Shown here: one piece after another, positions 22,576-63,016 of the stretch
Layout of the letters: each line of letters opens with the position of its first letter
Numbering within the stretch: position 1 is the stretch's first letter
Assembly: GCA_963707915.1 (NCBI GenBank)
Contig: OY970178.1
Location: 1,536,001 to 1,600,000, forward strand
Reading direction: 5' to 3'
DNA from: Candidatus Eiseniibacteriota bacterium
GTDB taxonomy: Bacteria; Eisenbacteria; RBG-16-71-46
DNA length: 64,000 nt
Position numbers and translations under genes: made by a program
The notes under the pieces: generated by a model
Database searches by the model: none
What the model saw: the letters and a program-made list of their open reading frames with translations, nothing else
Told to the model about the DNA's origin: nothing

Positions 22576-22636
22576 TCAACGTCCTGCTGCGCTTCCCGCC
22601 ACCGTCCCGCTCGACCACGCCCACTGGAAGTTGAAT
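22576..22636 (-). pseudogene. Displaced 3' end of the HI0933-family gene
   Basis: Minus strand reads FNFQWAWSSGTVAGSAAGR-stop, matching the C-terminus of the gene at 62881-64000. Confidence 0.88.
22615..22636 (+). repeat. att core, left copy (22-bp direct repeat)
   Basis: CCACGCCCACTGGAAGTTGAAT identical to 62950-62971. Confidence 0.95.
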
Positions 22637-22749
22637 GCTAGCCCCGGGGTGGACACAGAGGTCGAAAGCGGCGAGAAGCCCGCTGAATGTGTGCAAAGCG
22701 ACGAGGTCGAAGAGACCCGTTCGGACCCATAGAACCGGGGTCAAACTAG

Positions 22750-22773
22750 CAGTTCGAGCACAGAACCAGCACA
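22750..22773 (+). promoter_or_regulatory. Putative integrase arm-type sites, left arm
   Basis: CAGTTCGAGCACA + AACCAGCACA; the same two motifs occur at 62791-62811. Confidence 0.6.
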
Positions 22774-23010
22774 ACCAGGGTCGCCGCTACGCACGCAGGA
22801 GAGCCACTTGAAGGTGACCTCTGGCGCCGGGCTCTAGAGGATCCGGCCAGCCCGAGGACTCCCCCCGAGAGTGCGGTGAAGGCCTCGGTTGGACGTGCTG
22901 GAAAGCTCCACTTGGCCAGCCTGCCATCTTCAGGGATTCCGGTTGTTTGCTGCCGCGCTCTGCGATCGAAGCGCTAGACAACCAGTAACCCGCGTGTTCT
23001 TCTGACCGCC

Positions 23011-26000
23011 ATGAGTGAACTCCATGGACCCCGGCAGTTCAGATTCTCTGATCCGCGGCACGAGCGCATCCACCGCCGACTTGCACGGTTGATCGGACCG
23101 GGCGCCGCTGCGTTCTTCCGTGACGCCTGCAAGGTCGTGGAGGAGGCCCCGGCATTTCAGACCACGAGCCACATAGTTGGGCACCTGCTCCGGGAGACTG
23201 AGAGCTCCATCCGCTACGCCTTTCAGCCATTGATCAAGTCTGCGGGGCCGAGACCGAAGGATGCCGGCCATCGCTTTCAAATCGAGCAGACGCTCAGTGC
23301 ACTGAACATCCCGCTTACTGACCCGGTGGCCAAGGCGTGGTTGGCGATCGCCGGCAAGGAGAACGACAAGGGGCTTGCCGGGTTGGCGCATCGCAGAGAC
23401 CTCGGGCCGCCGCGTCCGTTCGATGGTGGCGCTCGGCAGGCGGTTGAGCAGATTGTGACGGTGCTCGATGCCGTCCTCGAGAAAGTCGAGGCGAGGTGGG
23501 AGGTGTTCCTTGCCACCTTTGACGCTCTTGCGAAGACAGAGCACCCGAACGCTAAGCACGCCGAAGAGCTGCGCCTTCGTCTGCCCAATAGCCTTCAAGC
23601 CAGGAGTCACTTCTTCGGACAGCTCGGGAACCCTGAGTGGCTGGACCCGCTCGGGCGAGAGGGCTTCTTCAAACAACCGCCGGAACCGGTCGTCGACGAT
23701 GAGGCGGATACGATCCTCTTTCCCCCCTGGCCCGAGTCACAGTTCTTGCTCAGGATGGCTCAGGCCGGTGTTCGTGCGGTACAGGAACAGGTCGTCGCGA
23801 TAGCTGGCGGTATCCCCGATGCAGATAATGTCCGCGTCTACGACGACTTGGCCTCGATCGCTCTCGCGGTTCCACCTGACCTCGCGAATCGCCTTGTGCC
23901 GCGCATTCAAGCGAAGCTACCGCTCCCGTATTCGTCGCAGTTTCCGCTGCACGTTGCTGACCTCGTTGTTCACTTGACGACAGCGGGGCTGGTCACCGAA
24001 GCCCTTGGCCTAGCGCGCACTCTCCTTGCGCTAGACTCCGATCCGCGGGCCGAGCGCTACGAAACGCCACCGGAGCACCAGATCGCTCCATTGCCCGGTC
24101 CCCAGCCCCGAATGCACCCGGCGTTCTATGACGATGTCTTGGAGAAGATGGTCCCGGCCCTCTTCAAGGCGAGCCCACACCAGACGACAGAGCTGCTGGC
24201 GGACCTTCTCGAGCAAGGGCTCCGTCTGGCGCAGCGGACGGCATCCCAGGCCGGCCCCGAGGCACAGTCGCAGGTATGGTGGCCGGACTTGACGCTCGCG
24301 CGCCCGAGTGTGGCCGACGACCCGCCGGCCATGCTGCTCGATGCTCTGCGCGGGTGCGTCATGGAGCTCGTGGCGAAGGATGCGGGGGCTGCTCTCGGAC
24401 TTGTCGCTGCCTTCGAGGCCAAGCCGTGGCATGTCTTCCGGCGTCTCTCTCTTCTGCTCCTTCGGCTCACTCCTGACCTTCCGGTCGGGGAGATTGAACG
24501 CCGCCTCCTGAGACTCGAGGACCACGAGATTCGAGAGTTCCACCGCGAGTACGTGGACCTGCTTCGCGAGTCGTACCCGAATCTCGGCGCCCCGGCCCAG
24601 CACACCATTCGCGAGTACCTGGCTCGGGAAAGGGACCAGGAGTCGTTGGTCGAGAACTTCCGATTCTGGTCTGGTCGTGACCCCTCTCCCCAGGACATCG
24701 CACAGCGCCAAGATGAATGGCGAGCAGCGCGTCTGGAACCCGTTGCGGAGTACCTGCCGGCCGAGATCAGGGACCAGTACGACGTGTGGGCGAGAACCCT
24801 TGAACCTCGGAGCGAGCCCACCCCTCCCGCCGCCGGCTGGGGATCACCGCGTTCGCCAAGGAAGTCGGAGGACCTTGCCGGCATGGAAGACGACGCGCTT
24901 GTGAACTACCTGGCGAACGTCGACTTGGGCGACGAACGCTTCGGACTCTCCCGGGAAGGGCTGGGCGAGTCCCTGACGCAGGCCGTCACGAGCGATCCGG
25001 ACCGATTTGTTCGCCTTGCCCCCCGGTTTCGCGACTTGGACCCAGCCTATCAACACGCACTATTCGCGGGACTCCACGACGTCTTGGCCAGGCAATCTGT
25101 CTTCAGCTGGCCTCCGATCCTAGACTTGGCAGTCGTAGTCACGTCCTCCACACCCGACCCAGCGAGTAGGCGAGGGGGCGGTCACTCCCCCGATGACCTG
25201 TGGGTCCGGCGAGCGATTCTGGATCTCGTCGCCCGAGGGTTGGAACCCGGACCTGGGGAGCTGCCTTTCGAACTCCGTCCGCGCATCTGGTCGGTCCTTG
25301 AGCCGCTCACGGCTGACCCCGATCCGACGCCGGACGAAGATGCCAAGCACACGAGCGCGGAAGAACGCGAGACGTTGTACCTGAACAGTCTCCGCGGCCG
25401 CGCGCTGGACGCTGTCTGGGGATACTCGGTCTGGATCTACAGGCATGATCACAAGGATGGCAGCAGGCCCATGACCTTCGGGCCCATCCCGGAGGTCCGC
25501 AGCATCCTCGGACGGCACCTCGACCCCGAGCACGAGCCGTCGCCGGCGATTCGTGTCTTCTATGGGCAGCACCTGCAGCAACTCCGCCGCCTCGACCCCG
25601 AGTGGCTGCACAACCAGGTGAAGCGGATCCTCCCTCGGGACCTCGAGTTGCTCTCCCAGAGCGCCTGGCAAGCGTACCTCTCCAGTGCCCAGGTTCAGCC
25701 ACCCGACTTCGAGATTCTCCGGCCCTGGTACGAGCAGGCCGTGGCGGAGGTCGGCTCCGACCTCTCAGGGGACACCCAGCGCTCCGCCGAACACCTGGGG
25801 CGCCACCTCGCAAGACTCCAGTGGCTGGGAGTGATCTCGCCGCGTGAGCCCGGCGGCTTGCTGGAGCGCTACTTCGCTCAGGCATCTCCAGCACTGCGCG
25901 GGGAGACGCTTGAGTTTGTCGCGCTCACGCTCAACAACACTAGCGACGCGCCTGCGCCCGTGCTCGAGCGCATGAGAATGCTCTGGGAGTGGCGGAGAGA

Positions 26001-26391
26001 AACCGCGGAAGGCACTGTTGAGCGGGAACAAGTCGCCGAGGAGATGGCTGCCTTTGGCCGGTGGTTTGCCTGCCCGCAGTTGGACCCCGAGTGGACACTT
26101 CGGGAGCTGAACGCGGCATTGCGGCTGAGTGGGCGCGTGGAACTCGCACCGACTGTCGTCAGCCGGCTGGCAATCCTCTCCGAGCGGTTCCCGAAAGCTG
26201 CCATCGAATGCTTGGATCTGATGGTGGGGGGCCGTGACCGCGACTTTGGCCCCGACTTCTGGCTACACGATGCCAGGCCAGTTCTTGAGAACGCTCGCCG
26301 CAGTCCCGACCCCGCGACTCAACAGGCGGCGATTGTGGTCATTAACCGCCTCTCCGCGCTCGGCTTCACGCAGTTTCGGGATCTCCTCTAG
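23011..26391 (+). CDS. 1126-aa helical protein, possible HEPN-like N-terminal nuclease domain; candidate defence protein
   Basis: Long open frame with protein-like composition; HIVGHLLRE and GLAHRR motifs; WLDPL...GFF..PP...WPES.FL.R segment recalled from large defence-island proteins. Confidence 0.7.
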   Translation: MSELHGPRQFRFSDPRHERIHRRLARLIGPGAAAFFRDACKVVEEAPAFQTTSHIVGHLLRETESSIRYAFQPLIKSAGPRPKDAGHRFQIEQTLSALNIPLTDPVAKAWLAIAGKENDKGLAGLAHRRDLGPPRPFDGGARQAVEQIVTVLDAVLEKVEARWEVFLATFDALAKTEHPNAKHAEELRLRLPNSLQARSHFFGQLGNPEWLDPLGREGFFKQPPEPVVDDEADTILFPPWPESQFLLRMAQAGVRAVQEQVVAIAGGIPDADNVRVYDDLASIALAVPPDLANRLVPRIQAKLPLPYSSQFPLHVADLVVHLTTAGLVTEALGLARTLLALDSDPRAERYETPPEHQIAPLPGPQPRMHPAFYDDVLEKMVPALFKASPHQTTELLADLLEQGLRLAQRTASQAGPEAQSQVWWPDLTLARPSVADDPPAMLLDALRGCVMELVAKDAGAALGLVAAFEAKPWHVFRRLSLLLLRLTPDLPVGEIERRLLRLEDHEIREFHREYVDLLRESYPNLGAPAQHTIREYLARERDQESLVENFRFWSGRDPSPQDIAQRQDEWRAARLEPVAEYLPAEIRDQYDVWARTLEPRSEPTPPAAGWGSPRSPRKSEDLAGMEDDALVNYLANVDLGDERFGLSREGLGESLTQAVTSDPDRFVRLAPRFRDLDPAYQHALFAGLHDVLARQSVFSWPPILDLAVVVTSSTPDPASRRGGGHSPDDLWVRRAILDLVARGLEPGPGELPFELRPRIWSVLEPLTADPDPTPDEDAKHTSAEERETLYLNSLRGRALDAVWGYSVWIYRHDHKDGSRPMTFGPIPEVRSILGRHLDPEHEPSPAIRVFYGQHLQQLRRLDPEWLHNQVKRILPRDLELLSQSAWQAYLSSAQVQPPDFEILRPWYEQAVAEVGSDLSGDTQRSAEHLGRHLARLQWLGVISPREPGGLLERYFAQASPALRGETLEFVALTLNNTSDAPAPVLERMRMLWEWRRETAEGTVEREQVAEEMAAFGRWFACPQLDPEWTLRELNAALRLSGRVELAPTVVSRLAILSERFPKAAIECLDLMVGGRDRDFGPDFWLHDARPVLENARRSPDPATQQAAIVVINRLSALGFTQFRDLL

Positions 26392-26488
26392 CCTTCGTCG
26401 GCGGGGTCTTCGGGAGTGGCGGCACGCCCCGCAAGAATGCCAAGGAGGCAGTTCAAGATGGCCGAGCTCAGCAAGCCACAGCTTCAAT

Positions 26489-26596
26489 TGCGAGTTTCGG
26501 ACCATCGTGAATACCCAGATCGGAGCATCGTGAACACCTGGACCGGCATGGTGAACAGCCAGATCGGGATCGTGAACACCTAGATCGGTGATCGTG
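26489..26596 (+). mobile_element. Orphan IS21-family-like terminus with tandem 21-23-nt repeats
   Basis: Begins TGCGAGTTTCGGACC then four ATCGTGAACACC.AGATCGG-like units (26504, 26527, 26548, 26569) and a partial fifth; no istA/istB. Confidence 0.6.
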
Positions 26597-26812
26597 TACA
26601 GGCCATCTTGCCCCGGAGGGGGCAGGAGTCTGGTGCCTCAGCTCCGACCAGACGCTCGGCACCCGCGCAGCCAGTAAGCTCCGCGGCTGGGCCCACGCAC
26701 GCCGAATCCGTGCACTCCTTCAACCACCACCCGCTCCCCGAACGAGAGCACCTGAGCCCTCGGCGGATGTTGAACCCGGTCTTGCCTTCTTCAATCCCCC
26801 AAGAGCGACCTA

Positions 26813-27946
26813 CTAACGGGTAGCAAGCGCGGCATGCGCCTCCGCAACGCATTGCCGGAGACGGCAGAACGCCAGCAGGAAGTGCCTCCTGGGTTCGACG
26901 ACCGCCATGAGCCCTGCATGTGCGGAAGCAATCGCGAGGGGCAGTCGCCAACTCATGGTCGCATCATCCAGATTGTGTCCGAGACGTTGGATCTCTCTAT
27001 CGAGCGCGTCGGCGCACATCTGCCTACGGCGTTCAATGATACCTGAGCGCCTGCCAGTCCCCGTGCGGATCGCCCACGTCATCCGCCCGTCTGCCACCGT
27101 GACATCGAATGCCCTGCGCCCACGGCGCCCACCCTTGCTTCGCCGCGCCTCGTGGTTGATATAACCCAACACATCCAGCCAGTGGTACAACTTGCCCACG
27201 TCAAACAGATAGTCCGTTTCACCGGCCGCCGGGTTCGGGTCGATCAGCCGCAGTCGATGTCGTCGCACCTGTTCGCGAACGAGGATGTTGCCAAGGTGCA
27301 GGTCGCCATGCGCCCGTCGTACCGGCACGCACACGCGCCGCGAAGCGGCCGCCAGCACCCGCAGCGACGTCTGAAGCGGAGGTACGCCCCCCCCGCCGAT
27401 GGTCACAGGTCCCATGACCACCGCTGCACCATGTCTCTTGCGTGCGGCTGCCAGGCGCGTCCGAATCCGATGCACGTATGGAAGCTCGATAGTGCGCCTT
27501 CGGAGTCCCACACTGAGATGCTGAGTAATCTGCTGCATGGCGCTCGTGACGATGGGAGCGACGGCGGACGTCGGGCGCGGGTCCTCATAGACCAGGGTGT
27601 AGAGGGAGCGATAGCCCTCAAGACGCTCGATCAGCATCCCATGCCGGCCGTCACCCAAGGGGAACGTCCCGAGCACGGCTGGCGTCAGTCGCGGCTGCGT
27701 CGTACGAAACAGCTCCTCCATGAGCGCAGCCTGTTCCACGATTTCCTCGCCGCCGAGCTTCAGGACGACATGCAGTTCGATTCCAAGGTCAGCAACCAGC
27801 GGACTCATGAATCCATCCGAGTATGGGATCCCATCCCCGAGGCGTACGTTAGGCCCAAGGTCTGTGCGCTTCACTCCGTTGGCGACAAGCGCGATCAACT
27901 CCCGACGGACCTTCCCGAAGTCGTCCTTGCTCAGGAGCTTGCTCAT
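26813..27946 (-). CDS. Aminoglycoside/choline-kinase-like phosphotransferase
   Basis: HGDLHLGNIL catalytic loop, LIDP, DYLFDVGKL; ATG at 27946 after GAGGG. Confidence 0.8.
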   Translation of the reverse strand: MSKLLSKDDFGKVRRELIALVANGVKRTDLGPNVRLGDGIPYSDGFMSPLVADLGIELHVVLKLGGEEIVEQAALMEELFRTTQPRLTPAVLGTFPLGDGRHGMLIERLEGYRSLYTLVYEDPRPTSAVAPIVTSAMQQITQHLSVGLRRRTIELPYVHRIRTRLAAARKRHGAAVVMGPVTIGGGGVPPLQTSLRVLAAASRRVCVPVRRAHGDLHLGNILVREQVRRHRLRLIDPNPAAGETDYLFDVGKLYHWLDVLGYINHEARRSKGGRRGRRAFDVTVADGRMTWAIRTGTGRRSGIIERRRQMCADALDREIQRLGHNLDDATMSWRLPLAIASAHAGLMAVVEPRRHFLLAFCRLRQCVAEAHAALATR

Positions 27947-28207
27947 GACACCCTCACAGGGTCTGCGCGACGACGAGTGATTCGCGACACTCTCTCGTGT
28001 CCCTGCCAGCCCCGCCCGTTCATGGCTCGGGCCAGCATGCAGACACGAGCAGCTCCCGTCCCGGAGCATGCGGCTGATGCAACCCGGCTCGCGTGTTTGC
28101 CACGATCCCGCCCGTCCCCGCGAGTAGGCCACGGTACTCCTGGCAGAGTGACATCACGTTGCTGCGCCCCCCACACGCGCCGCACGGAGACAGCGGCATC
28201 GGGTCCC

Positions 28208-29392
28208 TCAGGACCCGCCACGATCGGGGCCACTTTCCAGCGGGTGCACCGCACCGCCGGGCGGTCGCCCGAGCAGTTCATCGAGACGGTCGAGATCAGC
28301 ACTTGAGCAGATCCGCACGAGATCCTGCAGCTCGTTCGCGGTTTGCCAGATATCGCGAAGCCGGCGCATCTCGGAGCGCGACCGGCTTGCAGAGGTCCCA
28401 AGCCACCGAGGCATCTGATAGGCAATGCTCCCGTAGCCCCCCATCACCGACAGATCCTGATAGAGCCCTCTCTTCTGGAGGACGTTCCCCTCCACGAAGC
28501 TGATCGGGGCCCCGACGCGGCCGAACATCGTGGCCAGCCTTCGAAGGGACGCGGCCTGTGGCGTCCCTCGAAGTGCGTCAAACGACGACACCGTCACGAT
28601 CGTCTTGTATGAGCCAGGAGCTCTCTGCGCAGCCTCCATCGCGGTGTTGAGTAGGTGCGAGAATGGGCCAAAGGACTCCCAATAGTCGTAGCCCACTTGT
28701 TCGAGACTGGTGTCGAGGCAAAGGACCTCCCCACCGGATGGCAGTGTACACAGGTAGCCATGCTCCTCGAATGTCAGCAGTTCCGATTTGAGTAGCGCTA
28801 GCACTTCGGCGCGCTGTGACTTGAACCGTGGGAGGAGTGCGGGATCATCGTTCGCCGCTATGAGCTCGTCCATCTGACTGACCATTTCCTGGAGTCGCGA
28901 TCCCTCACCCACGCCGGGCAGAACCGTATATCCCGAGTCACCGAGAAGGAAGCAATAGAGTGGATGACTGTTGAGAAACGTGACGAGCTCCTGAACGTCC
29001 CAGATCAGAACGGTCGGACGTCCAGTGAACTGTTCGCCAAGGACGGCCGCTTCGTCATGGCATTGGGCCGAGCATCGGAAGTTGACGATCATGATGTAGT
29101 ACGCAGGAAGATGCAGGCGCCGCTCAAGCTCCGCCAGAGCTCGCGTCAGCAGTTGCAGGACACCACGCCGCGCAAGACTCTTCGTCCTGAACTTGAGCTG
29201 GAACACCCACTCGCCGCTCATGCCGGCGAAGTCTCCCCGACCAGGACCTGAGTAGGTTGCATCGCGTCCCCGGTCCTTCCCACTCACAGGATGAAGCCGC
29301 ACGCGCTCCGAGATGCGTCGCTTCAGCATCACAAGTGCGAGTTGATTGAAGGCGTCTTCCGTCAGGGTGGCGAGGCGCGCTTCGTCGATCAT
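28208..29392 (-). CDS. Restriction-endonuclease-like (Mrr-type PD-(D/E)xK) domain fused to a DUF6879-like putative sensor domain
   Basis: N-term F..L...L...GKDRGRDA...WVFQLKF and IWD..EL...L; C-term YW...AAQR...DLSVMG...IW pattern; ATG overlaps upstream stop (ATGA 29389-29392). Confidence 0.65.
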   Translation of the reverse strand: MIDEARLATLTEDAFNQLALVMLKRRISERVRLHPVSGKDRGRDATYSGPGRGDFAGMSGEWVFQLKFRTKSLARRGVLQLLTRALAELERRLHLPAYYIMIVNFRCSAQCHDEAAVLGEQFTGRPTVLIWDVQELVTFLNSHPLYCFLLGDSGYTVLPGVGEGSRLQEMVSQMDELIAANDDPALLPRFKSQRAEVLALLKSELLTFEEHGYLCTLPSGGEVLCLDTSLEQVGYDYWESFGPFSHLLNTAMEAAQRAPGSYKTIVTVSSFDALRGTPQAASLRRLATMFGRVGAPISFVEGNVLQKRGLYQDLSVMGGYGSIAYQMPRWLGTSASRSRSEMRRLRDIWQTANELQDLVRICSSADLDRLDELLGRPPGGAVHPLESGPDRGGS

Positions 29393-30510
29393 GGGTCTCG
29401 CTCGAAGGAGCCTCGGAGACGCGCGACTGCTTTGTGGAGATAGGGCACCGGTCGCGCGAAGACGATGCGCACGTGACGCGGGCATGGAGGCCAGAACGCC
29501 GTGCCCGGCAAGAGCACCACTTCTGCCCTCCGAATGGCGTGGCGGCATAGACGGCGGGCGTCCCATCCGGGCTTCACGACACGCGCCCAACAGAAGAGTC
29601 CGCCGTCCGGGGACCTCGGGAGGATGAGTCGCAAGAGACCTGAGCGCAGTGCGTCCACAAGAGCAGCGCGCGAACGGGCGAAACGGCCGGAGAGCAGGTC
29701 GAGCGGCGACCGCAGAAGATGCAGCGCAGCCTCCTGGCTGAGACCGGAAACACCGATACGCAGCGTTTCCGCTGTCGCCGCAAAGGCCCGTGAGAGCGCA
29801 CCCGACGCTGTGATCCACCCGATGCGGAGTCCGGGCGCACCGAATGTCTTCGACACGGAGTTCACCTTCACCAGCCACCCGTGCGCGAGGACCGCCCGCG
29901 GCTCGTGGCTTCGCGCACTCTCGTACAGGAACTCATCATAGACCTGATCGAGGATGAGAAACGTCCGGGCCCGCTCGCATTCTCGTGCCAGCCGAGTCAG
30001 AGTCGACTGCGCGTAGACGACGCCGGTCGGGTTGGATGGACAGTGGAGAAGCAGAGCTCTCGCCTGCCGCAATTGAGCGGCGGTCAAACGCTCGGGATGA
30101 CGAACCGGGACGGCATCCGCACCCAGCCGGTGGACGACTTGAGCGTAGAAGGCGAGCGCCGGAGCTTGGATCAGGACACGACAGCCACGTGACAGCACGC
30201 AGAGGAGGATGATGGACAATGCCTCGGACGCACCATTGGTGACGGTTATGTGCTCCGCGGACACATTAAGTGCGTACTTGCTGTTCTCCCGCGCGGCGAT
30301 GGAATCACGCAGCCGCGCGTCACCGCGGGTGTCCGGGTAGCTCCACGCACGGGACGCCGGAAGCCGCGGAAGCCCAATGCGCACCGACGGCACGGGCTCC
30401 GCCAGATCCAGAAGGGGGCGTCCGGTCGCCCGCGCCAGTCGGGCCAGGCCCTCCATGGGTGACGGGGAGCCACCCGACATCCACACCAAGCCGCGATGCG
30501 GTCGCATCAT
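29389..30510 (-). CDS. PLP-dependent aminotransferase class I/II
   Basis: YPDTRGD..LR, ITVTNGASEAL, PSNPTG, DQVYDEF, NSVSKTFGAPGLRIGW; ATG overlaps upstream stop (ATGA 30507-30510). Confidence 0.9.
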   Translation of the reverse strand: MMRPHRGLVWMSGGSPSPMEGLARLARATGRPLLDLAEPVPSVRIGLPRLPASRAWSYPDTRGDARLRDSIAARENSKYALNVSAEHITVTNGASEALSIILLCVLSRGCRVLIQAPALAFYAQVVHRLGADAVPVRHPERLTAAQLRQARALLLHCPSNPTGVVYAQSTLTRLARECERARTFLILDQVYDEFLYESARSHEPRAVLAHGWLVKVNSVSKTFGAPGLRIGWITASGALSRAFAATAETLRIGVSGLSQEAALHLLRSPLDLLSGRFARSRAALVDALRSGLLRLILPRSPDGGLFCWARVVKPGWDARRLCRHAIRRAEVVLLPGTAFWPPCPRHVRIVFARPVPYLHKAVARLRGSFERDP

Positions 30511-31526
30511 CGACCCTGTAGCGCAAGGGCGTGCTCCAACTCTGTTGGGTCGAGCCGATGATCGACGATTGTCTCGGCCAAGAGGTTGAAGCCACATTCT
30601 GAGAACAGCGTGCGCCAGAACGTGAGAGGGCGCAGCGCCTGTCGAGTCAGCTCGTGGAGCAGGAAGTATCCGTTGTAGTACCCAAGTCCTGAGGGGGTGG
30701 CCATCGCGGCCGGCGCGGCGGCGCGGTCCACTTCGACCACGATGACGAGTGCTCGCGGATGCTCCTTCGCTAGCGTCGTCAGCAGGAGCCGCACGGCCTC
30801 TTCCCCGTAGGTCCCGAGCAGCTCGTGCAACAGGAAGGCAAAGACGAAGACGTCCGCCCCCTTGGATGACGCGCTGCTCAAGAAGTGGACCGCATCTTCG
30901 CAGACAACGCTGACGCGGTCCGTCAGCCCCATGCGTGCCACCAATGCCTCAGCGCCGGCCGTGCTCACCGTGTTCCCCTCGACACCGATCGCTCGGATAC
31001 TCGGTAGCGCGGTGCACAGATCCACCAGGTACTGCGCATTGCCACAGCCGACATCAACGACCAGCTTCGCGTGAGGGCGGAAGCGATTGACATGACCAAG
31101 CACAAGCGGAATGGAATCGTGCGCGCTGATGGCGCAGCTGGCTCGACTGACCTCCCCGATGTTGCGACGTTGCGGAATCGGCCCCGTGCGAAGCGCGTCA
31201 GGAATGTGCGCAAAGACATCGCCATACCCACCGCAGAAGAGCGTGAGCCACCCCTCATGGCTTCGGATGTCGGCAAGCAACTCCGTGGTCCAGTAGTGTC
31301 CGGACTCCTGCACGGCGAGCCCCTCGGTTACAAGGAACTCCAACACCGCCCGAGTGATCGAGGGATCGAACCCAAGCCGCTCAGCCACGGACTCAGACGT
31401 GGCGCCCTCGTGGGTGAGCGCTCCTGCAAGACCAGATGTCACGACCGCATTCAAGACGTGGGTAACAACATAACCCCTGGACTGTGCGAGCAAGTACGCG
31501 AGGCCGTTGCTTGGCGCGAGTGGCAT
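30507..31526 (-). CDS. SAM-dependent methyltransferase resembling 2-keto-acid C3-methyltransferases (MrsA/MppJ type)
   Basis: N-terminal wHTH dimerisation region, GWLTLFCGGY, VDVGCGNA, FLLHE, YYNGYFLLHELTRQ; AGGAG SD. Confidence 0.75.
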   Translation of the reverse strand: MPLAPSNGLAYLLAQSRGYVVTHVLNAVVTSGLAGALTHEGATSESVAERLGFDPSITRAVLEFLVTEGLAVQESGHYWTTELLADIRSHEGWLTLFCGGYGDVFAHIPDALRTGPIPQRRNIGEVSRASCAISAHDSIPLVLGHVNRFRPHAKLVVDVGCGNAQYLVDLCTALPSIRAIGVEGNTVSTAGAEALVARMGLTDRVSVVCEDAVHFLSSASSKGADVFVFAFLLHELLGTYGEEAVRLLLTTLAKEHPRALVIVVEVDRAAAPAAMATPSGLGYYNGYFLLHELTRQALRPLTFWRTLFSECGFNLLAETIVDHRLDPTELEHALALQGR

Positions 31527-31696
31527 TGCGGCTCTTGTGCTCCTTCTCCGAGTAGGTTGGCTTGTCAATGGTCGTCGGCATCGAACCACATCTCAGAATG
31601 GTAGCCATCCCGGTGCGGGTATGCAGAACAGGCGTGCGCCGGCGCCGGCGCCACCAGCATAGGCATCCAGCGACTGCTCACTCGCTTTGTACTACT

Positions 31697-33661: not shown

Positions 33662-33976
33662 CGAGGGGCTCCTATGCTGCGGTTGTAACGCCCACGCCGA
33701 ATGCACCTACGTCGGCGAGGACACGCCCAACCCAAAGCTGGATGACCACACGGAGGTCGATATGCCAGTGTGGCCATCTTGGACATTCGGCTACTCTACT
33801 ATCAGAGCTGCTGCGGTGCAGGACCGGCGCGGCCGGCGCGTAGGGGACAGGGTAGCGTATGGCACTCGCCGGACCGACCGTTGTTGCACATCGAGGCCAT
33901 CTTCAAGACGTTCGCAAGAAGCCACGAATCGTGCGATCCTACGCTTCGCATGGACGGCTGGCAATCGCACGCTTAG

Positions 33977-39262: not shown

Positions 39263-39357
39263 TAGTGCCTCCTCGAGGAAGTCACGAGCGCGTTGGATCA
39301 CACGCCGATATGCGCCGAACTAGCCAGCTCAGCTGTGCGCCAAGGACGCAGGGTACT

Positions 39358-39780: not shown

Positions 39781-39885
39781 TTCAAGCCTCTCCGCCGCAC
39801 TGTTGTCGTGACCCCGGATGCTCTGTGCTTCTCTCAGGAACAAACCAGTCGGGTAACGGTCGTCTGTCAGCCACGAGCGCCCCGT

Positions 39886-45294: not shown

Positions 45295-45358
45295 GCCACT
45301 CTCCGACACTTGGTGGCCCTCGTTGACGTGCCCGACCGAACCGCCGCTGACAGTGAGG

Positions 45359-51492: not shown

Positions 51493-51496
51493 GGCG

Positions 51497-55900: not shown

Positions 55901-56208
55901 AGGGCCGTCCAGCGAGTCGCGCGCACCAGTGCGTCCAGGTGCTCCGGGACCATGGGCTGGCTCTGGACTACATCGGGCAGCGCCGTTGGCTCCAGGACCT
56001 GGTAGGCCGGCTCCCGCTCCCAGACTAGGAGGTCTTCCGACGGACCATCCGGGTCGACGTACTCGACGGAGACGAGGTGGAGCAGCCCTTCAGCATCGCT
56101 CTGGTGGGGTTCGACGGCAGCGATGACGCCCCGTCGGTTGCGCACCGTGGCGAGTGCGCCGACGCGAGGAATGGCCCCGGTAGGCGACGAGTCGTGTGTA
56201 GGCGGCAT
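52951..56208 (-). CDS. drmD: SNF2-like helicase, DISARM DrmD-related
   Basis: QLVPLLKALRMPRVSLMLADDVGLGKTIEAG, DEVH, LSATPHNG, TDAAAEGLNLQ, PWNPARLEQRNGRLDRHGQ. Confidence 0.9.
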   Translation of the reverse strand: MPPTHDSSPTGAIPRVGALATVRNRRGVIAAVEPHQSDAEGLLHLVSVEYVDPDGPSEDLLVWEREPAYQVLEPTALPDVVQSQPMVPEHLDALVRATRWTALQPFVDPDGSGPLERMPLAAPFYGAIQVEDFQLVPLLKALRMPRVSLMLADDVGLGKTIEAGLIVAELIQRRRIRRVLVLCPASLRTQWKQEMWEKFSLTFDIVDRRSTEALRKRVGMDANPWRSHPRIVASFDYLKQPDVLEQFRAAFPSDDTANLPWDLLIVDEVHNLAPAAIGVDSDASRLLQYLTPWFEHKLFLSATPHNGHTRCFTGLLECLDPVRFSRESVLTARARERAEEVVIRRLKREINERSNPPRFAERSLDPVRLQLGAQERALSAAFSEFRTKVRSLVGRASKQERLAGTFAVEVLGKRLLSCPATFSESWWRYRSGMTGEETAEVSEVRAAERSTREGISDDPEIESRARHAAQTVGAWLKPLADGLASEVQLVERTLRELGLDGPSGKGSPRRPNADARYDALEGLIKRLLLNGSDFRADERLVIFTEYKTTLDYLNQRLSSEFSGDGLVRVLYGGMDDVDRDEIKAAFNDPADPVRILVATDAAAEGLNLQESARYLLHFDVPWNPARLEQRNGRLDRHGQARDVVVHHFVTDDDADLDFLAYVVSKVHRIREDLGSTGEVFDAALERRLIRGEDASRVKSDLDLQVESARGRAEVPRSTRIETGEEELARLRALAEEVDLDAESLCDTLNLAIGQGGRALEGPDERGRYRLGHQLPEHWNALVNDCLRLPDRAGRRGALPFLVFDPSRLIATIGGRPVFRPERDTALLHLGHPMYHQALASFARLRFPGPGGQSRWSVRLGAVPDGADALLLLTVEELAVNELRETFHHWVRTLQLPIRGGNLGQSLPHVPAHNLRVPPTTPAASEIRRARELWDEVAQGLRGLLEVQAAELTRQVKAALATELEAERDRESKRFQSRQAEVSELIQNTTLTRLQREIDELKAEAQQGTLFDPEERVAEIERSVEEKEEEVRRRRAHYEQLRLQLERERKRVLELLLPKRYALRGTAQVFPVSVEVRLPAERGGAT

Positions 56209-57620: not shown

Positions 57621-57622
57621 AC

Positions 57623-58762
57623 TTGCAGCAAGGAGGTACTTCCGCGATTCTCGATATAAGCGTCCGGGATGGCGAATCCGTGCAGACGGCAGGCCGAACG
57701 TCTGCTGCCTTCGTCAAGCCACAGCGACTCAGGAGGCTGGAGGGTCTCGTGTCGAGAATTGTCTCGCCCTATCCCTCGCTGATCGGCCGGGCTGAGACCT
57801 CGCCCGAGAAGGTCCTCTATCGCGGCATGATCAGCCGCTTTGTCGAGTCCCTGATCCTGCATGCGTGGGGTATCAGCGCGCCTCTTGAGTTCGGCTGGTG
57901 GGCGTTCGCGATCAACCAGCAGACTCCCGCGACCGATCCTCGTGTCATTGTCTACCAAACCGCGAGGTCGCGCCTTGCTTCGCTCTGGCCGGGGCCAGCC
58001 TCAGTCGGACAATTGAGAGCGTTCCAGATCATCTGGTCCGGTGGGCATTGCCAGCTTCGAATCAACCGCCAGGTCCGGGGCAAGTTGACCGGCAGACTGG
58101 AAACGAATCCGAAGGACGGGGCGAAGCCCTGTATGCAGCTACTCTTCGGGTTGCAGCCCGACGAGCCGGATGATGCCGGTCAGTACACCGTGTTCGAATG
58201 GCAGCGTGCCGATGGGCTGAGTGCCATCATCTTCTGGGATCTGGTCCAGCCTATCGTCCGCGGGCATTCACCTGCTGAGGTGGAAGGCATCATCCGACGG
58301 ACGCTGCCGCCGGGTGGTCCACGACGACGCTGGGCTGGGCTCGTGAAGCGTACCTCGGTGGACGAGATTCCGAGCATGTACTGGCAAGCAGCGATCGGGG
58401 CCACGGGCTGGCGGAGCATTGCCTCGCGTACCCTTGAGAGGCTTGAGACGTCCGTACGCGCGGGCGAGCCGTCCCGGAAGACGAATCTCAGCTCAGTTCC
58501 GCTTGAAGATGCGGAGTCCGCTGACTCCAGCGGGGGGGATTCCGTCCAGGCTAGCCCGTCAGGCCGCGAGGGGGACGACAGGCGGATTGACATCGAGCGG
58601 GCTGTCGGTGAACTCAGCCAGCGGGACCAGCGGATCCTCCGCATGTACGGTGAGGGGTACACCGATGAAGAGATTGGCAGTGTCCTCCACGTCAGCCACC
58701 AGGCAGTGAACAAGACGCGCCAGAAAGCGAACCTGAGGTTGCGCAACTTGCTGAGTAGCTGA
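57623..58762 (+). CDS. Protein with C-terminal sigma-70 region 4 HTH (start uncertain)
   Basis: DIERAVGELSQRDQRILRMY.EGYTDEEIG..L.VSHQAVNK. Confidence 0.75.
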   Translation: MQQGGTSAILDISVRDGESVQTAGRTSAAFVKPQRLRRLEGLVSRIVSPYPSLIGRAETSPEKVLYRGMISRFVESLILHAWGISAPLEFGWWAFAINQQTPATDPRVIVYQTARSRLASLWPGPASVGQLRAFQIIWSGGHCQLRINRQVRGKLTGRLETNPKDGAKPCMQLLFGLQPDEPDDAGQYTVFEWQRADGLSAIIFWDLVQPIVRGHSPAEVEGIIRRTLPPGGPRRRWAGLVKRTSVDEIPSMYWQAAIGATGWRSIASRTLERLETSVRAGEPSRKTNLSSVPLEDAESADSSGGDSVQASPSGREGDDRRIDIERAVGELSQRDQRILRMYGEGYTDEEIGSVLHVSHQAVNKTRQKANLRLRNLLSS

Positions 58763-58836
58763 CAGCTACGGGAATCTGCAGAGCCACGGTTGCAAAGTCG
58801 GCCCATCGCACCCCTCTCCCAGGTAAGGAGGGTGAG

Positions 58837-59166
58837 ATGGGCCACTTCATTTTGAGGCTGTTCCCCGACGGAAGAGTCGAGCAGTCAGTCCACGCGAGGA
58901 CTTGGAAGGAGCGCGAGGAACTGATCGCATTCGGCCTCTATCTCCAGCCTGGATTGGCCGCGTTGGATGTCTCGGCTCGGGTCTGGCGCGACTTCGCCAT
59001 CCCGACCAGGCCCACTAGAGGACTTGCCCGGGGTGTGCTCGGGGCGGCGGATTCCAGCGGCAGGCGTGCGCGGCAGCGCGGAAGAGCAAACCAGTTGCAG
59101 GTGCGACTCGGCGAGATCTCGCACAAACGGCCAAAGGCCGGCGTCGCCGCAGAGGGGGCAAGCTGA
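58837..59166 (+). CDS. Hypothetical protein of the element core
   Basis: AAGGAGG SD; stop overlaps Prim-Pol start (TGATG). Confidence 0.6.
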   Translation: MGHFILRLFPDGRVEQSVHARTWKEREELIAFGLYLQPGLAALDVSARVWRDFAIPTRPTRGLARGVLGAADSSGRRARQRGRANQLQVRLGEISHKRPKAGVAAEGAS

Positions 59167-61073
59167 TGGCAACCACCGGGCAGTCCCAGAACGAAGAGGG
59201 CGAGCGGGCTGCACATGCCAATGAGCAGGGAGAGAGCCCTTACGTGCACGGCGAGGACAGCCCCGTGCTCGCAGCGGCACTCAACTACACAGCAAGGGGA
59301 TGGCGCGTTATCCCGGTGAACGGCAAGAGGCCGCTCACGCCACATGGGTACCAGGACGGCGCCACGGAAGAGTCGGTGATTCGCGCCTGGTGGACCACGT
59401 GGCCGGCTGCTGGCGTCGCTATCGTCGTCGGGCCCGAGTCTGGGCTCTCGGTAGTGGACATCGATCCACGCAATGGCGGTAGCGCCACGCTCGAGGCCCT
59501 GCGAGCCCAGCACGGCCTCCTCCCTGAGACCCTCACCGTCAGGACCGGAGGCGACGGGCTGCACCTCTACTTCCGCTACCACCCCCGCGCCGGGCGGCGC
59601 TTGCTCGGGCCCGGGGTCGAGATGAAGGGTGCGGGTGGCTACGTCGTCGCTCCGCCAAGCCCACACCCCAGCGGTGGCACGTACAAGTGGAGTGGCCCCG
59701 AGGATGCGCTGCTGGCCGAGTTGCCTGAGTGGATGCTGGATGATCGGTCGACCGCGTCCGCGGGAGCTCAGCCGCTTCCCAAGAGGATCCCAGAAGGCGA
59801 ACGCCACCGCGCACTGACCTCCCTCGCCGGCAGTATGCGCAGGCGCGATGCCCCGCCCCATGCGATCCAGGCCGCGCTCGCAATCGTCAATCTCGAACGC
59901 TGCGAACCACCACTCTCAGATCCTGAGGTGGCCGGCATTACCAGCTCTGTCGCGCTCTACCCCGCACCCCCACCGACGGAGCCGCGCGGGGGGCTCGAGG
60001 TAGCCGTGCCACCCGGCCAGACTCATTCCGCCGCAACTATAGGTACGAGTTCCGGCAGAGAGAATCTCAGGTTCCGGACCGCCAAGGAGGTCGCGTCGAT
60101 GACGGGCGGCGAGGTGTCCTGGATTGCCGAGCCCTGGGTTGCCCGAGGCTCCATCACGGAGCTAGCTGGGAAGGTCAAGCAGGCGGGCAAGACCACGCTC
60201 CTCGCCCATCTGGTCGCAGCAGTCCTCGATGGTTGCGAGTTCCTCGGCAGGCCGACAACTCGGACGCCCGTCTTCTGGCTCACGGAGCAAAATCCGACCA
60301 GCTTCCGCCAGGTGCTCCGGCGCGCGGGCCTCCTGAATCGAGACGACCTCCATGTCCTGTTTTGGCACGAGACGCTCGGCATCCCGTGGGAAGAAGTCGT
60401 GAGGGCCGTTCTTGCAGAAGCCCAGCGCCAGGGTGCAGGCCTTCTCGCCGTCGATACTCTCGGGCAATTCGCCGGCCTGAAGGGGGACACCGAGAACTCG
60501 TCGGGAGACGCTTTGGCGGCGATCCAACCCCTGCAGGCCGCGGCGGCAGCAGGCCTTGGGATTCTGGTGAATCGTCACGAGCGGAAGGGCGGCGGTGAGG
60601 TTGGGGAATCGGGCCGGGGCTCGTCCGCCTTCTCTGGCGCGGTGGATGTCGTTCTGGTCCTTCGGCGCCCGGAGGGGCAGCCGCGGCCCACCATCCGCCA
60701 AATCGTCGCACTCTCGCGGTTCGACGAGACACCCCCCGAGCTCCTGATTGAGCTGCGAGCAGACGGTTACGTGGCCCTAGGCACGGCGAAGGACATCGCC
60801 CACCGGGAGGCCCGCCAGGCGATTCTGCGAGAAGCGCCAACGGACCAGGCGGACGCACTCACGATCGATGAACTACTCGAGCGGATCTCCGGGATGAAGC
60901 GCACCGTCGCCCAGAAAGCCCTGGCGGAGCTCGTCCAGGACTCGCTGCTGAGACGCATCGGTGCCGGTGTCAAAGGCGATGGCTACCGCTACCTCCGAGT
61001 TGCCATGGACACGGGGACTGACAGTGGCCGTCAGGATTCCTTCTGCCGGAACTCCATCACTGAGGAGGGCTGA
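59166..61073 (+). CDS. Bifunctional primase/polymerase + PriCT + RecA-like AAA helicase (element replicase)
   Basis: GWRVIP..GKRP, VVDID, TGGDGLHLYF, GYVVAPPS.H; IPEGERH..L; GKVKQAGKTT, AVDTL, RGSSAFSGAVD. Confidence 0.9.
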   Translation: MATTGQSQNEEGERAAHANEQGESPYVHGEDSPVLAAALNYTARGWRVIPVNGKRPLTPHGYQDGATEESVIRAWWTTWPAAGVAIVVGPESGLSVVDIDPRNGGSATLEALRAQHGLLPETLTVRTGGDGLHLYFRYHPRAGRRLLGPGVEMKGAGGYVVAPPSPHPSGGTYKWSGPEDALLAELPEWMLDDRSTASAGAQPLPKRIPEGERHRALTSLAGSMRRRDAPPHAIQAALAIVNLERCEPPLSDPEVAGITSSVALYPAPPPTEPRGGLEVAVPPGQTHSAATIGTSSGRENLRFRTAKEVASMTGGEVSWIAEPWVARGSITELAGKVKQAGKTTLLAHLVAAVLDGCEFLGRPTTRTPVFWLTEQNPTSFRQVLRRAGLLNRDDLHVLFWHETLGIPWEEVVRAVLAEAQRQGAGLLAVDTLGQFAGLKGDTENSSGDALAAIQPLQAAAAAGLGILVNRHERKGGGEVGESGRGSSAFSGAVDVVLVLRRPEGQPRPTIRQIVALSRFDETPPELLIELRADGYVALGTAKDIAHREARQAILREAPTDQADALTIDELLERISGMKRTVAQKALAELVQDSLLRRIGAGVKGDGYRYLRVAMDTGTDSGRQDSFCRNSITEEG

Positions 61074-61170
61074 ATGAACGTCCATGCCTTCGAACGCATC
61101 GGCGTCCTGACCGCGAAGCGGGGTCAATTCGTTCTGCCGGAACACGAGTTGGCGCGGCGGAGAGTGGCAA

Positions 61171-61530
61171 GTGGCTCAAACTGACCTCCTCGCCACCGAC
61201 GTAGAGCTGACCGCCTTGCTGGCTGACTCGGCACGTGCGGTTGGCGTTCCACCAGCGCGCGCGGCAGCAATGCTCGTGCGGCTCGCAGCCTTGCAGGTAG
61301 CGCTGGCTGCACAGCTGCAGGCGGCGCCTGTGGCGATCGCGCAGGTCGAGGAGCGCGCGGACACGGATCGGCTCCTGAACGTGCAGCAGGCGGCCGAGGT
61401 TCTCAACGTGACCGTGGGGTGGCTTTACCGCAAGGCGCCCAAGCTACCCTTCACCCGCAAGTTATCGGGCCGACTGCTGCGCTTCTCGGAGCGGGGAATG
61501 CAGGCTTGGGCGGGCAAACAGAGGCCTTGA
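61171..61530 (+). CDS. Excisionase/AlpA-like HTH protein
   Basis: RLLNVQQAAEVLNVTVGWLYR...LPF.RK..R.LRF; directly upstream of integrase. Confidence 0.8.
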   Translation: MAQTDLLATDVELTALLADSARAVGVPPARAAAMLVRLAALQVALAAQLQAAPVAIAQVEERADTDRLLNVQQAAEVLNVTVGWLYRKAPKLPFTRKLSGRLLRFSERGMQAWAGKQRP

Positions 61531-61672
61531 CTGTGCCGTCGCACCAGAGGGAATGGTCGTGACACCAGGTATGGCCTGGGGAATGTCGCAGCGGCCGCCG
61601 GCGAGCGGCGCGCCGACTGCGCGAGACGCATCGATCGAAGTAGTCCGGCCGGGCAGGCCAAAGGGAGTTGGA

Positions 61673-63016
61673 GTGGCGCCGAAGAAGAGGCGGAAGCGGA
61701 GGACCAAGGCGCCCAAGGCCCGCGGGATGGGGCGCACCTACCAGCGCGGCGAGATCTGGTGGGTGCAGTACTCCTTCCGGGGCAAGCTCTACCGCGAATC
61801 CTCGAAATCCGACAAGCAGGCAACGGCCGTGAGCCTCCTGCAGCTGCGGCAGGGGGAGATGGCACAAGGACGGCTTCCCAGGCTTGACGCCGAGAAGGTC
61901 ACCTTCAACGACTTGGTGGCCCTGATCGAGGCCGACTACGTCCAGAAGGGCAACCGGACCTGGTGGCGCGTTGAACGCTCCCTCCTGCACCTGCGCCCGG
62001 TGTTCGAGCACGTGCCGGCCGTGAGCATCGGCTACGGCAACGTCTCGCGCTACATCCAAGACCGGCTCAAGGCAGGCGCCGCACGTGGGACCGTGCACCA
62101 CGAGCTCGCGGCCTTGGGCCGGATGCTCAAGCTGGGCGTTATCGCCGGCCGGCTGCAGGTACGCCCTCCCCTGCCCCCCCTCAAGCTCGACAACGTGCGT
62201 AAGGGGTTCTTCACTGACGAAGAGGTCCGCCGCGTGCTCAACCACCTACCCGACTGGCATGCCCCTGCCATCGAGTTCGCTTGGCGAACTGGCTGGCGCA
62301 GCGGCGAGGTGAAGGGCCTCAGCTGGGCCCAAGTCGACTTTGCTGCCGGGACGGTGCGGCTCGAGCCGGGCACAACCAAGAACCGCGAGGGTCGGACCTT
62401 CCCCTTCGCGACGTTCCCCCCGTTGTCCGACCTCCTTCACCGTCAATGGGAGCGCACTCAGGCCTGGCAGCACGAGCACGGCCAGATCGTGCCGTGGGTC
62501 TTCTGGAAGGAGGGCCGCCAGCTCGGCGATCACCGCGACATCTGGATCGGCGCCTGCAGGAAGGCTGGCCTGCCCGGACGGCTGGTCCACGATCTGCGGC
62601 GCAGTGCCGTGCGCAACCTGGAGCGGGCTGGCGTGCCGCGCTCCTCGGCGATGAAGCTCACTGGCCATCTCACCGAGTCAGTCTACCGCCGCTACGCCAT
62701 CGTCTCCGAGGCGGATCTCGGCGAGGCCGTGCGCAAGCTCGCCACGTTTCAGCAGGCGCAAGTGAGCGCCTCACTGCGCCCGGAAGCGGCAACCAGCACA
62801 GTTCAAGCACAAATCGGCTGGCACCCAAGCGCGTCCCAAGACAATGACGCTTCGCCGCACGATCGCACCGCTACCGGAACTCACGGCGTGTCCGTCGATT
62901 GCGCGAGCGTCCTTTCCCCCGCAGCTCTTCCCGCCACGGTACCCGAGCTCCACGCCCACTGGAAGTTGAATCCCCCCAGCCTCCCGTCCACATCCAGCAT
63001 CTCGCCGCACAGGTAG
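61673..63016 (+). CDS. int: Tyrosine recombinase/integrase (GTG start at 61673 likely; ORF open from 61553)
   Basis: TGWRSGE (R), TTKN (K), HDLRR, LTGH, YRRY; N-terminal arm-binding-like region WWVQYSFRGK..RES. Confidence 0.95.
   Translation: MAPKKRRKRRTKAPKARGMGRTYQRGEIWWVQYSFRGKLYRESSKSDKQATAVSLLQLRQGEMAQGRLPRLDAEKVTFNDLVALIEADYVQKGNRTWWRVERSLLHLRPVFEHVPAVSIGYGNVSRYIQDRLKAGAARGTVHHELAALGRMLKLGVIAGRLQVRPPLPPLKLDNVRKGFFTDEEVRRVLNHLPDWHAPAIEFAWRTGWRSGEVKGLSWAQVDFAAGTVRLEPGTTKNREGRTFPFATFPPLSDLLHRQWERTQAWQHEHGQIVPWVFWKEGRQLGDHRDIWIGACRKAGLPGRLVHDLRRSAVRNLERAGVPRSSAMKLTGHLTESVYRRYAIVSEADLGEAVRKLATFQQAQVSASLRPEAATSTVQAQIGWHPSASQDNDASPHDRTATGTHGVSVDCASVLSPAALPATVPELHAHWKLNPPSLPSTSSISPHR
62791..62811 (+). 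promoter_or_regulatory. Putative integrase arm-type sites, right arm
   Basis: AACCAGCACA + CAGTTCAAGCACA, matching motifs at 22750-22773. Confidence 0.6.

Follow-up and report, generated by a model that had tools for sequence, protein, structure and literature searches.

A 40-kb genomic island that very probably repairs the flavoprotein gene into which it integrates

Introduction

How can 40 kb of DNA lie within the 3´ end of a conserved protein-coding gene and leave the reading frame of that gene open? The question is raised by a 64,000-nucleotide (nt) stretch of the Candidatus Eiseniibacteriota genome GCA_963707915.1 (contig OY970178.1, positions 1,536,001 to 1,600,000; hereafter the window), where a 22-bp direct repeat brackets the block and lies in the 3´ end of a minus-strand gene of the HI0933/aminoacetone-oxidase flavoprotein family. 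We argue that the block is very probably a site-specific island that repairs its target gene. In the proposed mechanism, the island would enter the 3´ end of the flavoprotein gene through site-specific recombination carried out by a tyrosine integrase, with the crossover falling within the 22-bp segment that encodes FNFQWAW. Downstream of this core, the attachment site of the element (attP) would carry a diverged copy of the last conserved codons (SSGTVAGR...) and a stop codon of its own; because the gene end is borne on attP, integration would replace the host tail and the flavoprotein open reading frame (ORF) would stay intact. Judged from its sequence, the block appears to be a 40.3-kb integrative genomic island, neither conjugative nor phage, with a lambda-type tyrosine integrase.

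The strategy has precedents. Lambdoid phage 21 and the element e14 are said to integrate in the 3´ end of Escherichia coli icd and to restore the gene end. They share with the island a tyrosine integrase, a target in the 3´ end of a protein gene, a diverged copy of the gene end and a displaced fragment at the other junction; they differ in target gene, host phylum and integrase lineage, and the island is not a phage. Compared with the icd elements, the replacement supplied by the island is short, with eight conserved codons and a variable tail. Integration that restores the gene end is a classical mechanism. The E. coli gene yhiN presumably belongs to the HI0933 family. Given this assignment, the Tn7-like element Tn6230, which is reported to land between yhiN and yhiM in E. 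coli (PMC10121019), is likewise a defence-carrying mobile element with an HI0933-family landmark; Tn6230 is an intergenic transposon, whereas the island has a tyrosine integrase, a crossover within coding sequence and no Tns protein among the ORFs scanned. The dusA-specific integrases are reported to be dedicated to a single protein-coding gene across many genomes, in prophages or islands with varied cargo, and to insert at the 5´ end of the gene (PMC4482086); dedication and varied cargo recur here, but the island inserts at the 3´ end, in a different gene and phylum. The TIGER/Islander survey of 2025 places 43.4% of 1.75 million islands in protein-coding sequences.

Our literature searches found no work combining HI0933, integrase and integration site (the TIGER/Islander tables may list the target without comment), none on prophages or the host attachment site (attB) that mentions HI0933, and none combining Eisenbacteria and integrase. 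This agrees with an earlier model-made annotation of the window (the sequence-only reading), according to which the family is not known as a described target; the large TIGER/Islander island tables lie outside the scope of the searches. What we describe is a known integration strategy at a target gene that they did not find described.

A perfect direct repeat bounds DNA of foreign composition

The 22-mer CCACGCCCACTGGAAGTTGAAT, read on the plus strand, forms a perfect direct repeat at 22615–22636 and 62950–62971. We take these two identity segments, which have no strand of their own, as the cores of the left (attL) and right (attR) junctions, on the basis of the repeat and of its genome-wide count: across the 3,623,634-bp single-contig genome there are two exact copies only. 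In 100 dinucleotide-preserving shuffles, no match to the repeat was found even at two mismatches. Similarity extends around the core over 54 nt at 80% identity, with a spacing of 40,335, and the island between the cores measures 40,335 bp. Its guanine-plus-cytosine (GC) content is 0.61–0.67, against 0.70–0.74 outside the repeats, so that, as expected of an island, direct repeats bound DNA of foreign composition. There are no tRNA genes in the 64-kb window.

The island supplies a recoded 3´ end to the flavoprotein gene

The body of the target gene lies at 62972–64000 on the minus strand and continues past the window. It matches PF03486 (2.7e-44) and PF22780 (2.6e-23) in Pfam and TIGR00275, “aminoacetone oxidase family FAD-binding enzyme” (3.7e-109; 365 bits against a cut-off of 183.8). 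The minus-strand translation of the core is FNFQWAW. On the attR side, the flavoprotein frame continues after the core as SSGTVAGRAAGERTLAQSTDTP and stops at 62881–62883; translation and codon comparison thus delimit an island-supplied replacement tail of 22 codons and a stop (62881–62949, minus strand). On the attL side, the minus strand carries the orphan FNFQWAWSSGTVAGSAAGR, preceded by unrelated, stop-containing sequence. After the core it reads SSGTVAGSAAGR with a stop at 22576–22578; this is the displaced original tail (22576–22614, minus strand), now untranslated, with codons as in the related loci L009 and L010. The crossover is accordingly inside coding sequence, and the end supplied by the element keeps the frame open: at locus L003, the entire flavoprotein ORF is open from an N-terminal VAVIGAGAAG Rossmann (GxGxxG) motif to the new tail stop. 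Since the alignments to Pfam, TIGR00275 and PDB 2i0z extend at least eight residues beyond the crossover, to ...SSGTVAGR, the island replaces about the last eight residues of the conserved domain together with the variable tail.

The two tails of the window encode nearly the same residues with different codons. Over the first 11 codons after the core, three are identical, seven differ synonymously only and one is non-synonymous, with 12 of 33 nt differing. Five attL/attR pairs, one of them from an unpublished genome (G026 = G043), give 19 identical, 27 synonymous-only and 9 non-synonymous codons among 55 (the first 11 of each). In the window and in the sister element of genome G041, the core-adjacent serines change from TCG AGC to AGC TCG, and two further pairs have a switch at the second serine; a switch of serine codon family from TCG to AGC alters all three bases and leaves the residue unchanged. 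The motif [ST][ST]G[TW]VAGR is retained in all five pairs. The island tails also follow the family of their host, TTGWVAG being supplied where host tails read S/T-T-G-W/Y (unpublished genome). An excess of synonymous change of this kind is the signature of protein-level selection on the replaced tail, and it indirectly supports a functional flavoprotein after restoration; we infer that the restored enzyme is active. At position 8, the window's displaced tail has S; of the 27 tails that can be read this far, 26 have R or K, and that of L004 has A. The change is consistent with drift in a fragment no longer translated.

The sequence-only reading had reported the perfect repeat encoding FNFQWAW at both ends, quoted the displaced and island-supplied codons, and held that the protein was kept while the DNA was mostly synonymously changed. 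Its description of repeat, gene and tails is right in every detail that was checked, the repeat being the unique pair in the genome with no counterpart among the shuffles, and the pattern of change holds in all five attL/attR pairs. Its further proposal, that selection keeps the target gene functional, is backed by the 27 synonymous-only against 9 non-synonymous codons.

Two kinds of unusual gene end were seen in relatives. In three genomes of one genus, belonging to another family of the same order, an orphan second gene tail starting at the core (GYNFQWAWSTGWVAGR...) lies 0.5–1.1 kb downstream of an intact gene with no integrase (L028, 449–529; L029, 2787–2840; L030, 348–434). They resemble either the scars left behind by decayed elements or small att-bounded elements that lack an integrase. 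In genome G004 (L004/L059), the flavoprotein frame continues for more than 75 codons beyond the conserved SSGTV at an otherwise empty site, and is either frameshifted or extended.

Empty sites in relatives and an attP junction in a sister element

Uninterrupted sites resembling the predicted attB exist in close relatives. Two empty sites from the same genus (L009, L010) read core followed by TCG AGC GGG AC(G/A) GTG GCG GGG, and share their codon usage with the displaced tail, not with the island tail. The same-genus genomes G001 and G006 continue from the core with the host-type TCG AGC GGG ACG GTG GCG GG. In G004, also of the same genus, a 461-kb contig provides synteny: the gene aligns to window positions 64000–62917, and 1.2 kb past the gene the alignment resumes at 19342–18037 and then at 16241–6789. 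Both the island and an FG-GAP gene at 19599–22178 are absent from this site. At L011, a homologue of the downstream gene is present.

The converse junction was found in a sister element. One contig of G041 has two perfect cores, separated by 19.2 kb. The 2,335-nt contig L034 carries an integrase, an island-type tail and the core as in the attR of G041; after the core it closely matches the island side of the G041 attL, with no flavoprotein gene. From this order of segments, L034 is best read as the attP junction, circular or tandem, of the sister element. Of the checks proposed by the sequence-only reading, that for an empty attB-like site in relatives was thus borne out (L009 and L010, with G004 syntenic and lacking the island); that for attP and attB in reads gave neither site for this copy, the one attP junction (L034) being that of a sister element. 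Runs X1–X4 yielded contigs of relatives only; those with low depth, loose ends at 62950 and host-type tails belong to other organisms and are uninformative about this copy. A 37-kb contig from run X1 differs from the window at 18 of 463 nt in the 3´ part of the integrase gene and at 102 of 729 in the HI0933 part, a pattern that would fit movement between hosts.

An integrase clade apparently specific for the target gene

The tyrosine integrase gene (61553–63016, plus strand, 487 codons) abuts attR. The assignment rests on PF00589 (4.6e-15; 56.3 bits against a cut-off of 27.1), on the PHROGs integrase family phrog_1 (1.9e-42) and on an alignment of four integrases, in all of which the HDLRR and RRYA blocks are invariant; we take these to be the catalytic His/Arg/Tyr boxes. 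Beside it lies a small protein with an HTH_17 domain of the AlpA/excisionase type (61171–61530, plus strand; PF12728, 3.7e-06, 27.5 bits against a cut-off of 27), which from this position is a candidate recombination directionality factor.

Close homologues of the integrase occur at the same gene. Among those of at least 60% identity with undisturbed DNA past the integrase gene, 15 of 15 lie at the end of an HI0933 gene, 14 of them integrated and one an attP junction on a 2.3-kb contig. The search of genome contigs returned 12 integrase loci. In each of the nine whose identity is at least 61%, the integrase 3´ end lies at the core with an HI0933 tail: eight are integrated and convergent with the gene (L033, L035–L041), and the ninth is the attP contig L034. 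Among 26 loci from metagenome contigs, 12 have an identity of at least 60%; four of these are cut by contig ends, two are disrupted and six are informative, and all six carry the core and the HI0933 gene. The association of integrase homologues with HI0933 3´ ends, which the sequence-only reading had proposed as a test, was accordingly found in genomes (9/9) and metagenomes (6/6) alike.

More distant homologues, at 35–56% identity, behave differently. All 19 (3 genomic, 14 metagenomic, 2 viral) lack a neighbouring HI0933 gene. Thirteen were scanned for tRNAs, and eight of these adjoin a tRNA gene, within about 70–170 nt (Val, Ala, Leu-caa and five Leu-tag). Two of the three genome homologues at 38–56% adjoin tRNA-Val or tRNA-Ala, none having HI0933, and five of the eight scanned among the 14 metagenome homologues at 43% or less lie beside tRNA-Leu(tag), again without HI0933. 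IMG/VR yielded two relatives only, at 35–36% identity, one of them beside tRNA-Leu, and deposited phages gave no integrase match above 28% identity. These outgroup integrases share the gene-end-adjacent layout; they have no HI0933 gene nearby, whereas the clade of the island sits at the HI0933 end. The distribution points to an integrase clade specific for the HI0933-family gene and nested among tRNA-targeting integrases; the target of this clade seems to have changed from tRNA genes to a protein gene.

Occupation of the site was also surveyed in 40 relatives of the window genome, 29 of which have an orthologue of the flavoprotein. A full integrase homologue convergent with the gene 3´ end was found in three of the 29 (L005, L015, L025), a contig break at or just past the core in two (L006, L019) and the orphan second tail in three (L028–L030); the other 21 have no integrase within the 0.3–1.5 kb of downstream DNA examined. 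Matches in nearly all relatives to “integrase” residues ~425–487 are merely an antisense reading of the HI0933 tail and were not counted.

Two loci with 69–75% identical integrases and no HI0933 gene (L070, L072) resembled counter-examples, but both were set aside because they are disrupted, and were not taken for separate alternative sites. In L072, the integrase gene breaks off at codon 297. In L070 (3205–3700), a 75%-identical copy lacks the first ~170 codons, and ~45 nt past the arm repeats its P arm is interrupted, apparently by another, oppositely oriented tyrosine-recombinase gene that meets it with the 3´ end; here one mobile element seems to have broken into a second.

Organization of attP

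The putative attP spans roughly 300 bp. Its P´ arm (22637–22775, plus strand) is homologous to the DNA following the core of L034, with which it aligns in blocks, and is, by eye, ~93% like the P´ arm of the sister element in G045. Paired AGCACA repeats lie at 22757–22762 and 22768–22773 on the plus strand, 121 and 132 nt past a 21-nt core. The first repeat is at 121 nt in four AGCACA arms (window, L049, L047 and L034) and at 122 nt in L052, and L054 has a GGCACA-type variant. The P arm carries the matching pair AGCACA n5 AGCACA (62795–62811, plus strand), 155 and 144 nt before the core, and the spacing from P arm to core is identical in nine loci (window, L033–L036, L039, L062, L066 and L067). 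In other integrase lineages, TGACAC or GGCACA replaces AGCACA at the same positions in both arms. Repeats that track the integrase lineage would be expected of arm-type integrase sites, and Int probably binds the AGCACA repeats.

Two further conserved elements were noted. The P´ arms share a 7-nt direct repeat, RACCSRT, with copies 10–11 nt apart near +80 to +95 (by eye); in the window it reads GACCCGT/GACCCAT, at 22714–22720 and 22724–22730 on the plus strand. In the P arm, the motif GGAACTCA (62876–62883, plus strand) is found 74 nt before the core, its last three bases forming the stop codon of the replacement tail (TGA, minus strand). It occurs at this position in 9 of the 11 scanned loci of subclade A, L063 and L068 falling outside the search pattern, and these are the same nine that share the identical arm spacing. 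The motif might be bound by a bending protein of the host or by the excisionase.

Read-through of the integrase frame across the core

The conserved part of the integrase ends near codon 400–406 (~62770), where the ORF of L015 stops. In the window, the integrase ORF extends over the P arm, where it is antisense to the replacement tail, and then across the core and 45 nt into host DNA. In this locus and nine related ones the frame reaches or passes the core without a stop, or, in L062, stays open as far as the contig goes. The distance from the RYA motif to the core equals 2 modulo 3 in 11 of 11 loci of the subclade, which show six lengths between 227 and 287 nt. In 10 of the 11, the variation in length is confined to DNA upstream of the arm repeats that does not code for the tail, and L068 has an additional 2-nt difference between arm and core. 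In the P´ arms of the subclade, the integrase frame stays open for exactly 31 codons to the same conserved TAG (5/5).

One possibility, which we hold tentatively and regard as rather doubtful, is that attP is dual-coding and that the C-terminus of the integrase changes upon integration, as a built-in switch that weakens or silences the integrated Int. Myxophage Mx8, which targets a tRNA gene, reportedly has its attP inside the integrase gene intP and makes IntP and IntX forms. There as here, the integrase ORF spans the attP core, so that integrated and excised forms would encode different C-termini; unlike Mx8 with its tRNA-gene target, the island would encode the new tail of a host protein on the other strand of the same DNA. 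The C-terminus of the excised form of Int would be an acidic stretch of 31 residues encoded by the P´ arm (...EETRSDP and a stop), the integrated form would swap this for 15 residues antisense to the host gene, and transcription of the host gene would converge on the integrase gene once the island is integrated. Against such a switch, the conservation of the extension follows the arm repeats and GGAACTCA and is poor elsewhere, the conserved TAG lies within the RACCSRT repeat, which is also present in a subclade that does not read through (by eye), and open frames are common at 72% GC. Moreover, in that sister subclade (L037, L038, L040, L041, L065) the integrase gene stops ~180 nt before the core and the site is still used, which means that read-through is not needed for targeting.

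Alternative explanations

Several points weigh against an active, gene-repairing island. For this copy neither attP nor attB was recovered, no indexed public run containing the strain (at best, 0.13 of the sampled words were found in a run). The one non-conservative change in its displaced tail means that the insertion is not brand new, and it could be fixed. The HTH_17 match is just over its cut-off and has no NCBIfam or PHROG counterpart, and no HTH_17 homologue was recognised in the G041 sister element. The searches recover only integrases that share two peptide patterns. Loci from metagenome-assembled genomes and from metagenomes may overlap and are kin, not independent samples; three pairs of loci (L033 and L005, L036 and L025, L038 and L015) give identical tblastn figures, each pair probably representing a single genome. 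The unpublished genome G026 = G043 (L025, L036, L045, L054) is among the data; leaving it out, the counts become 8/8 genome loci, 4/4 tail pairs and 4/4 P´ arms.

The island may have arrived by the proposed mechanism and be fixed by now as an immobile, domesticated defence island. This is unlikely in our judgement. The S in the displaced tail, where nearly all tails have R or K, is what an old insertion might show, no junction reads were found (in runs none of which holds the strain), and decay of elements at this site is evident from the integrase-less orphan tails of L028, L029 and L030. Yet the integrase ORF of the window is intact, the cores are identical over 22 bp, and both arms retain intact repeats with the exact spacing of the family; in addition, the P´ arm likeness to the G045 sister and a 96%-identical integrase in another host speak for recent spread. 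We infer that this copy can still excise.

A second alternative, which we consider improbable, is a phage satellite of the P4 type or of the phage-inducible chromosomal island type, mobilised by a helper phage. Satellite backbones comprise a regulator, a primase-polymerase (PrimPol)/helicase, a small helix-turn-helix (HTH) protein and an integrase, and P4-like satellites hold defence hotspots. The right end of the island shows a similar order of regulator, PrimPol/helicase, small HTH protein and integrase, and its defence cargo resembles those hotspots. However, 40 kb is far above known satellite sizes, no capsid, packaging or helper-interference family was found by Pfam (26 ORFs scanned) or PHROGs (14 ORFs scanned), and the nearest integrases in IMG/VR are 35–36% identical, those of deposited phages less than 28%. 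The same scans detected no phage structural, relaxase or type IV secretion families. A prophage was rejected for lack of capsid, tail, terminase and lysis genes in both scans, and an integrative conjugative element for lack of relaxase, coupling-protein and type IV secretion families among the Pfam-scanned ORFs, the one FtsK/HerA-like match belonging to a SIR2-HerA pair. A Tn7-like transposon was rejected because TnsA, TnsB, TnsC and TnsD are absent from the Pfam matches and the boundaries are a direct repeat beside an integrase gene.

It is very improbable that the likeness of the tails reflects recognition of core sites by the integrase, or recent capture of host DNA, in place of selection on the protein. 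Core-type Int sites usually flank the overlap region, so that some bases outside the exactly identical segment must be common to attP and attB, and both tails of the window contain GTGGCGGG. But the differences cluster at synonymous positions across the five pairs (27 against 9 codons), the serine switch from TCG to AGC replaces three bases for the same residue, a host of the TTGWVAG family receives a TTGWVAG island tail (unpublished genome), and the replaced residues fall within the Pfam, TIGR00275 and PDB alignments, all of which argues for selection.

An origin of the repeat by chance, or as an artefact of assembly, is already refuted, by the shuffles (0/100), by the single contig of the window genome and above all by the recurrence of the configuration in 14 other assemblies, which rules it out.

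Implications

Integration at the flavoprotein gene is defined here as an integrase/attP/attB system, with boundaries at base level, an arm architecture, empty sites and an attP junction, for an integrase lineage that has no record in the literature searched. The clade is bound to one conserved motif of a widespread flavoprotein and its nearest relatives target tRNA genes, which makes it a clean case for studying how integrases change target. A site-specific integrase with a conserved landing site of ~21 bp could become a genetic tool for these uncultured bacteria. Finally, since the cargo at the site varies, from SIR2-HerA and DISARM-like defence here to restriction and metal/resistance-nodulation-division (RND) efflux in the sister, the site is a predictable place to look for accessory genes in the phylum.

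Gene content of the island

The island comprises ~33 kb of cargo, nearly all on the minus strand, and a block at the right end, running from regulator to integrase on the plus strand. Besides the HTH_17 and integrase genes, this block contains a regulator with sigma-70 region 4/LuxR-type HTH similarity (57623–58762, plus strand; Pfam and PHROGs, with NCBIfam below cut-off) and a replication protein with PrimPol, PriCT_1 and AAA_25 helicase-like domains (59166–61073, plus strand; PF09250 8.4e-44, PF13481 4.1e-17), which also matches PHROG primase/polymerase families and presumably replicates the excised circle.

A first cargo block (23011–35451; Pfam and PADLOC) begins with a Dsr1-like protein (23011–26391, plus strand; PADLOC Dsr1 1e-22, a partial match). 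It further contains a kinase-like ORF (26813–28132) whose APH match is weak, at or below the curated cut-off, an aminotransferase (29389–30597) and a methyltransferase (30507–31589), both from Pfam, and a protein with TPR and Mrr_cat-like regions (31697–33706), the Mrr_cat match again being weak, at or below the curated cut-off. The Pfam scan left ORFs at 28208–29878 and 33973–35451 without an assigned family. Next comes a SIR2-HerA pair on the minus strand, with HerA at 35691–37832 (PADLOC PDLC04098 3.7e-251; Pfam DUF87) and SIR2 at 37829–39301 (PADLOC PDLC04079 4.2e-165; Pfam SIR2_2).

The remaining cargo is a DISARM-like module with its neighbours (39358–56208, all on the minus strand; Pfam and PADLOC). 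It consists of an LRAT/NlpC-like protein (39358–39843; Pfam), a DEAD helicase of 1829 amino acids with an MZB/DUF1998 domain (39886–45375; best PADLOC match DruE, 1e-108), a DUF6998 protein (45359–46306; 1.4e-47, and phrog_35225 7.5e-43), a type IIG/DrmMI-like methyltransferase of 1729 amino acids (46303–51492; REase_MTase_IIG E=0, DrmMI 1.1e-131), RmuC (51497–52954; Pfam) and the SNF2 helicase DrmD (52951–56208; PADLOC DrmD 1.2e-205). Neither Pfam nor PADLOC found a DrmC/PLD protein in the module, which is why we term it DISARM-like only. Its composition is unusual in having DUF6998 between the methyltransferase and the large helicase, and RmuC between the methyltransferase and the SNF2 helicase.

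The 19.2 kb between the two perfect cores of the G041 sister element (L057 = G041:C4:26000-45999; L058) carry a different cargo, with a Type ISP restriction enzyme, a P-type ATPase, an RND/CusABC-like efflux trio, an HTH-M78 regulator and an AAA_25 protein. A G041 ORF tried as an HTH_17 homologue proved to be the N-terminus of the integrase in another frame.

Outside the island, the ~1.8 kb at 16241–18037 of the window are absent from the otherwise colinear region of G004. An ORF of 158 amino acids at 21976–22452 was tried as a synteny marker and rejected; it has no homologue in the locus of any relative and is unlikely to be a gene. The FG-GAP/VCBS repeat protein gene mentioned above (19599–22178, minus strand) separates the displaced tail from the conserved flank and encodes 859 amino acids with a FlgD Ig-like C-terminus. 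It is built of ~13 tandem units of 147 nt, has an intermediate GC content of 0.66–0.69 and may represent an older insertion at this site, distinct from the island.

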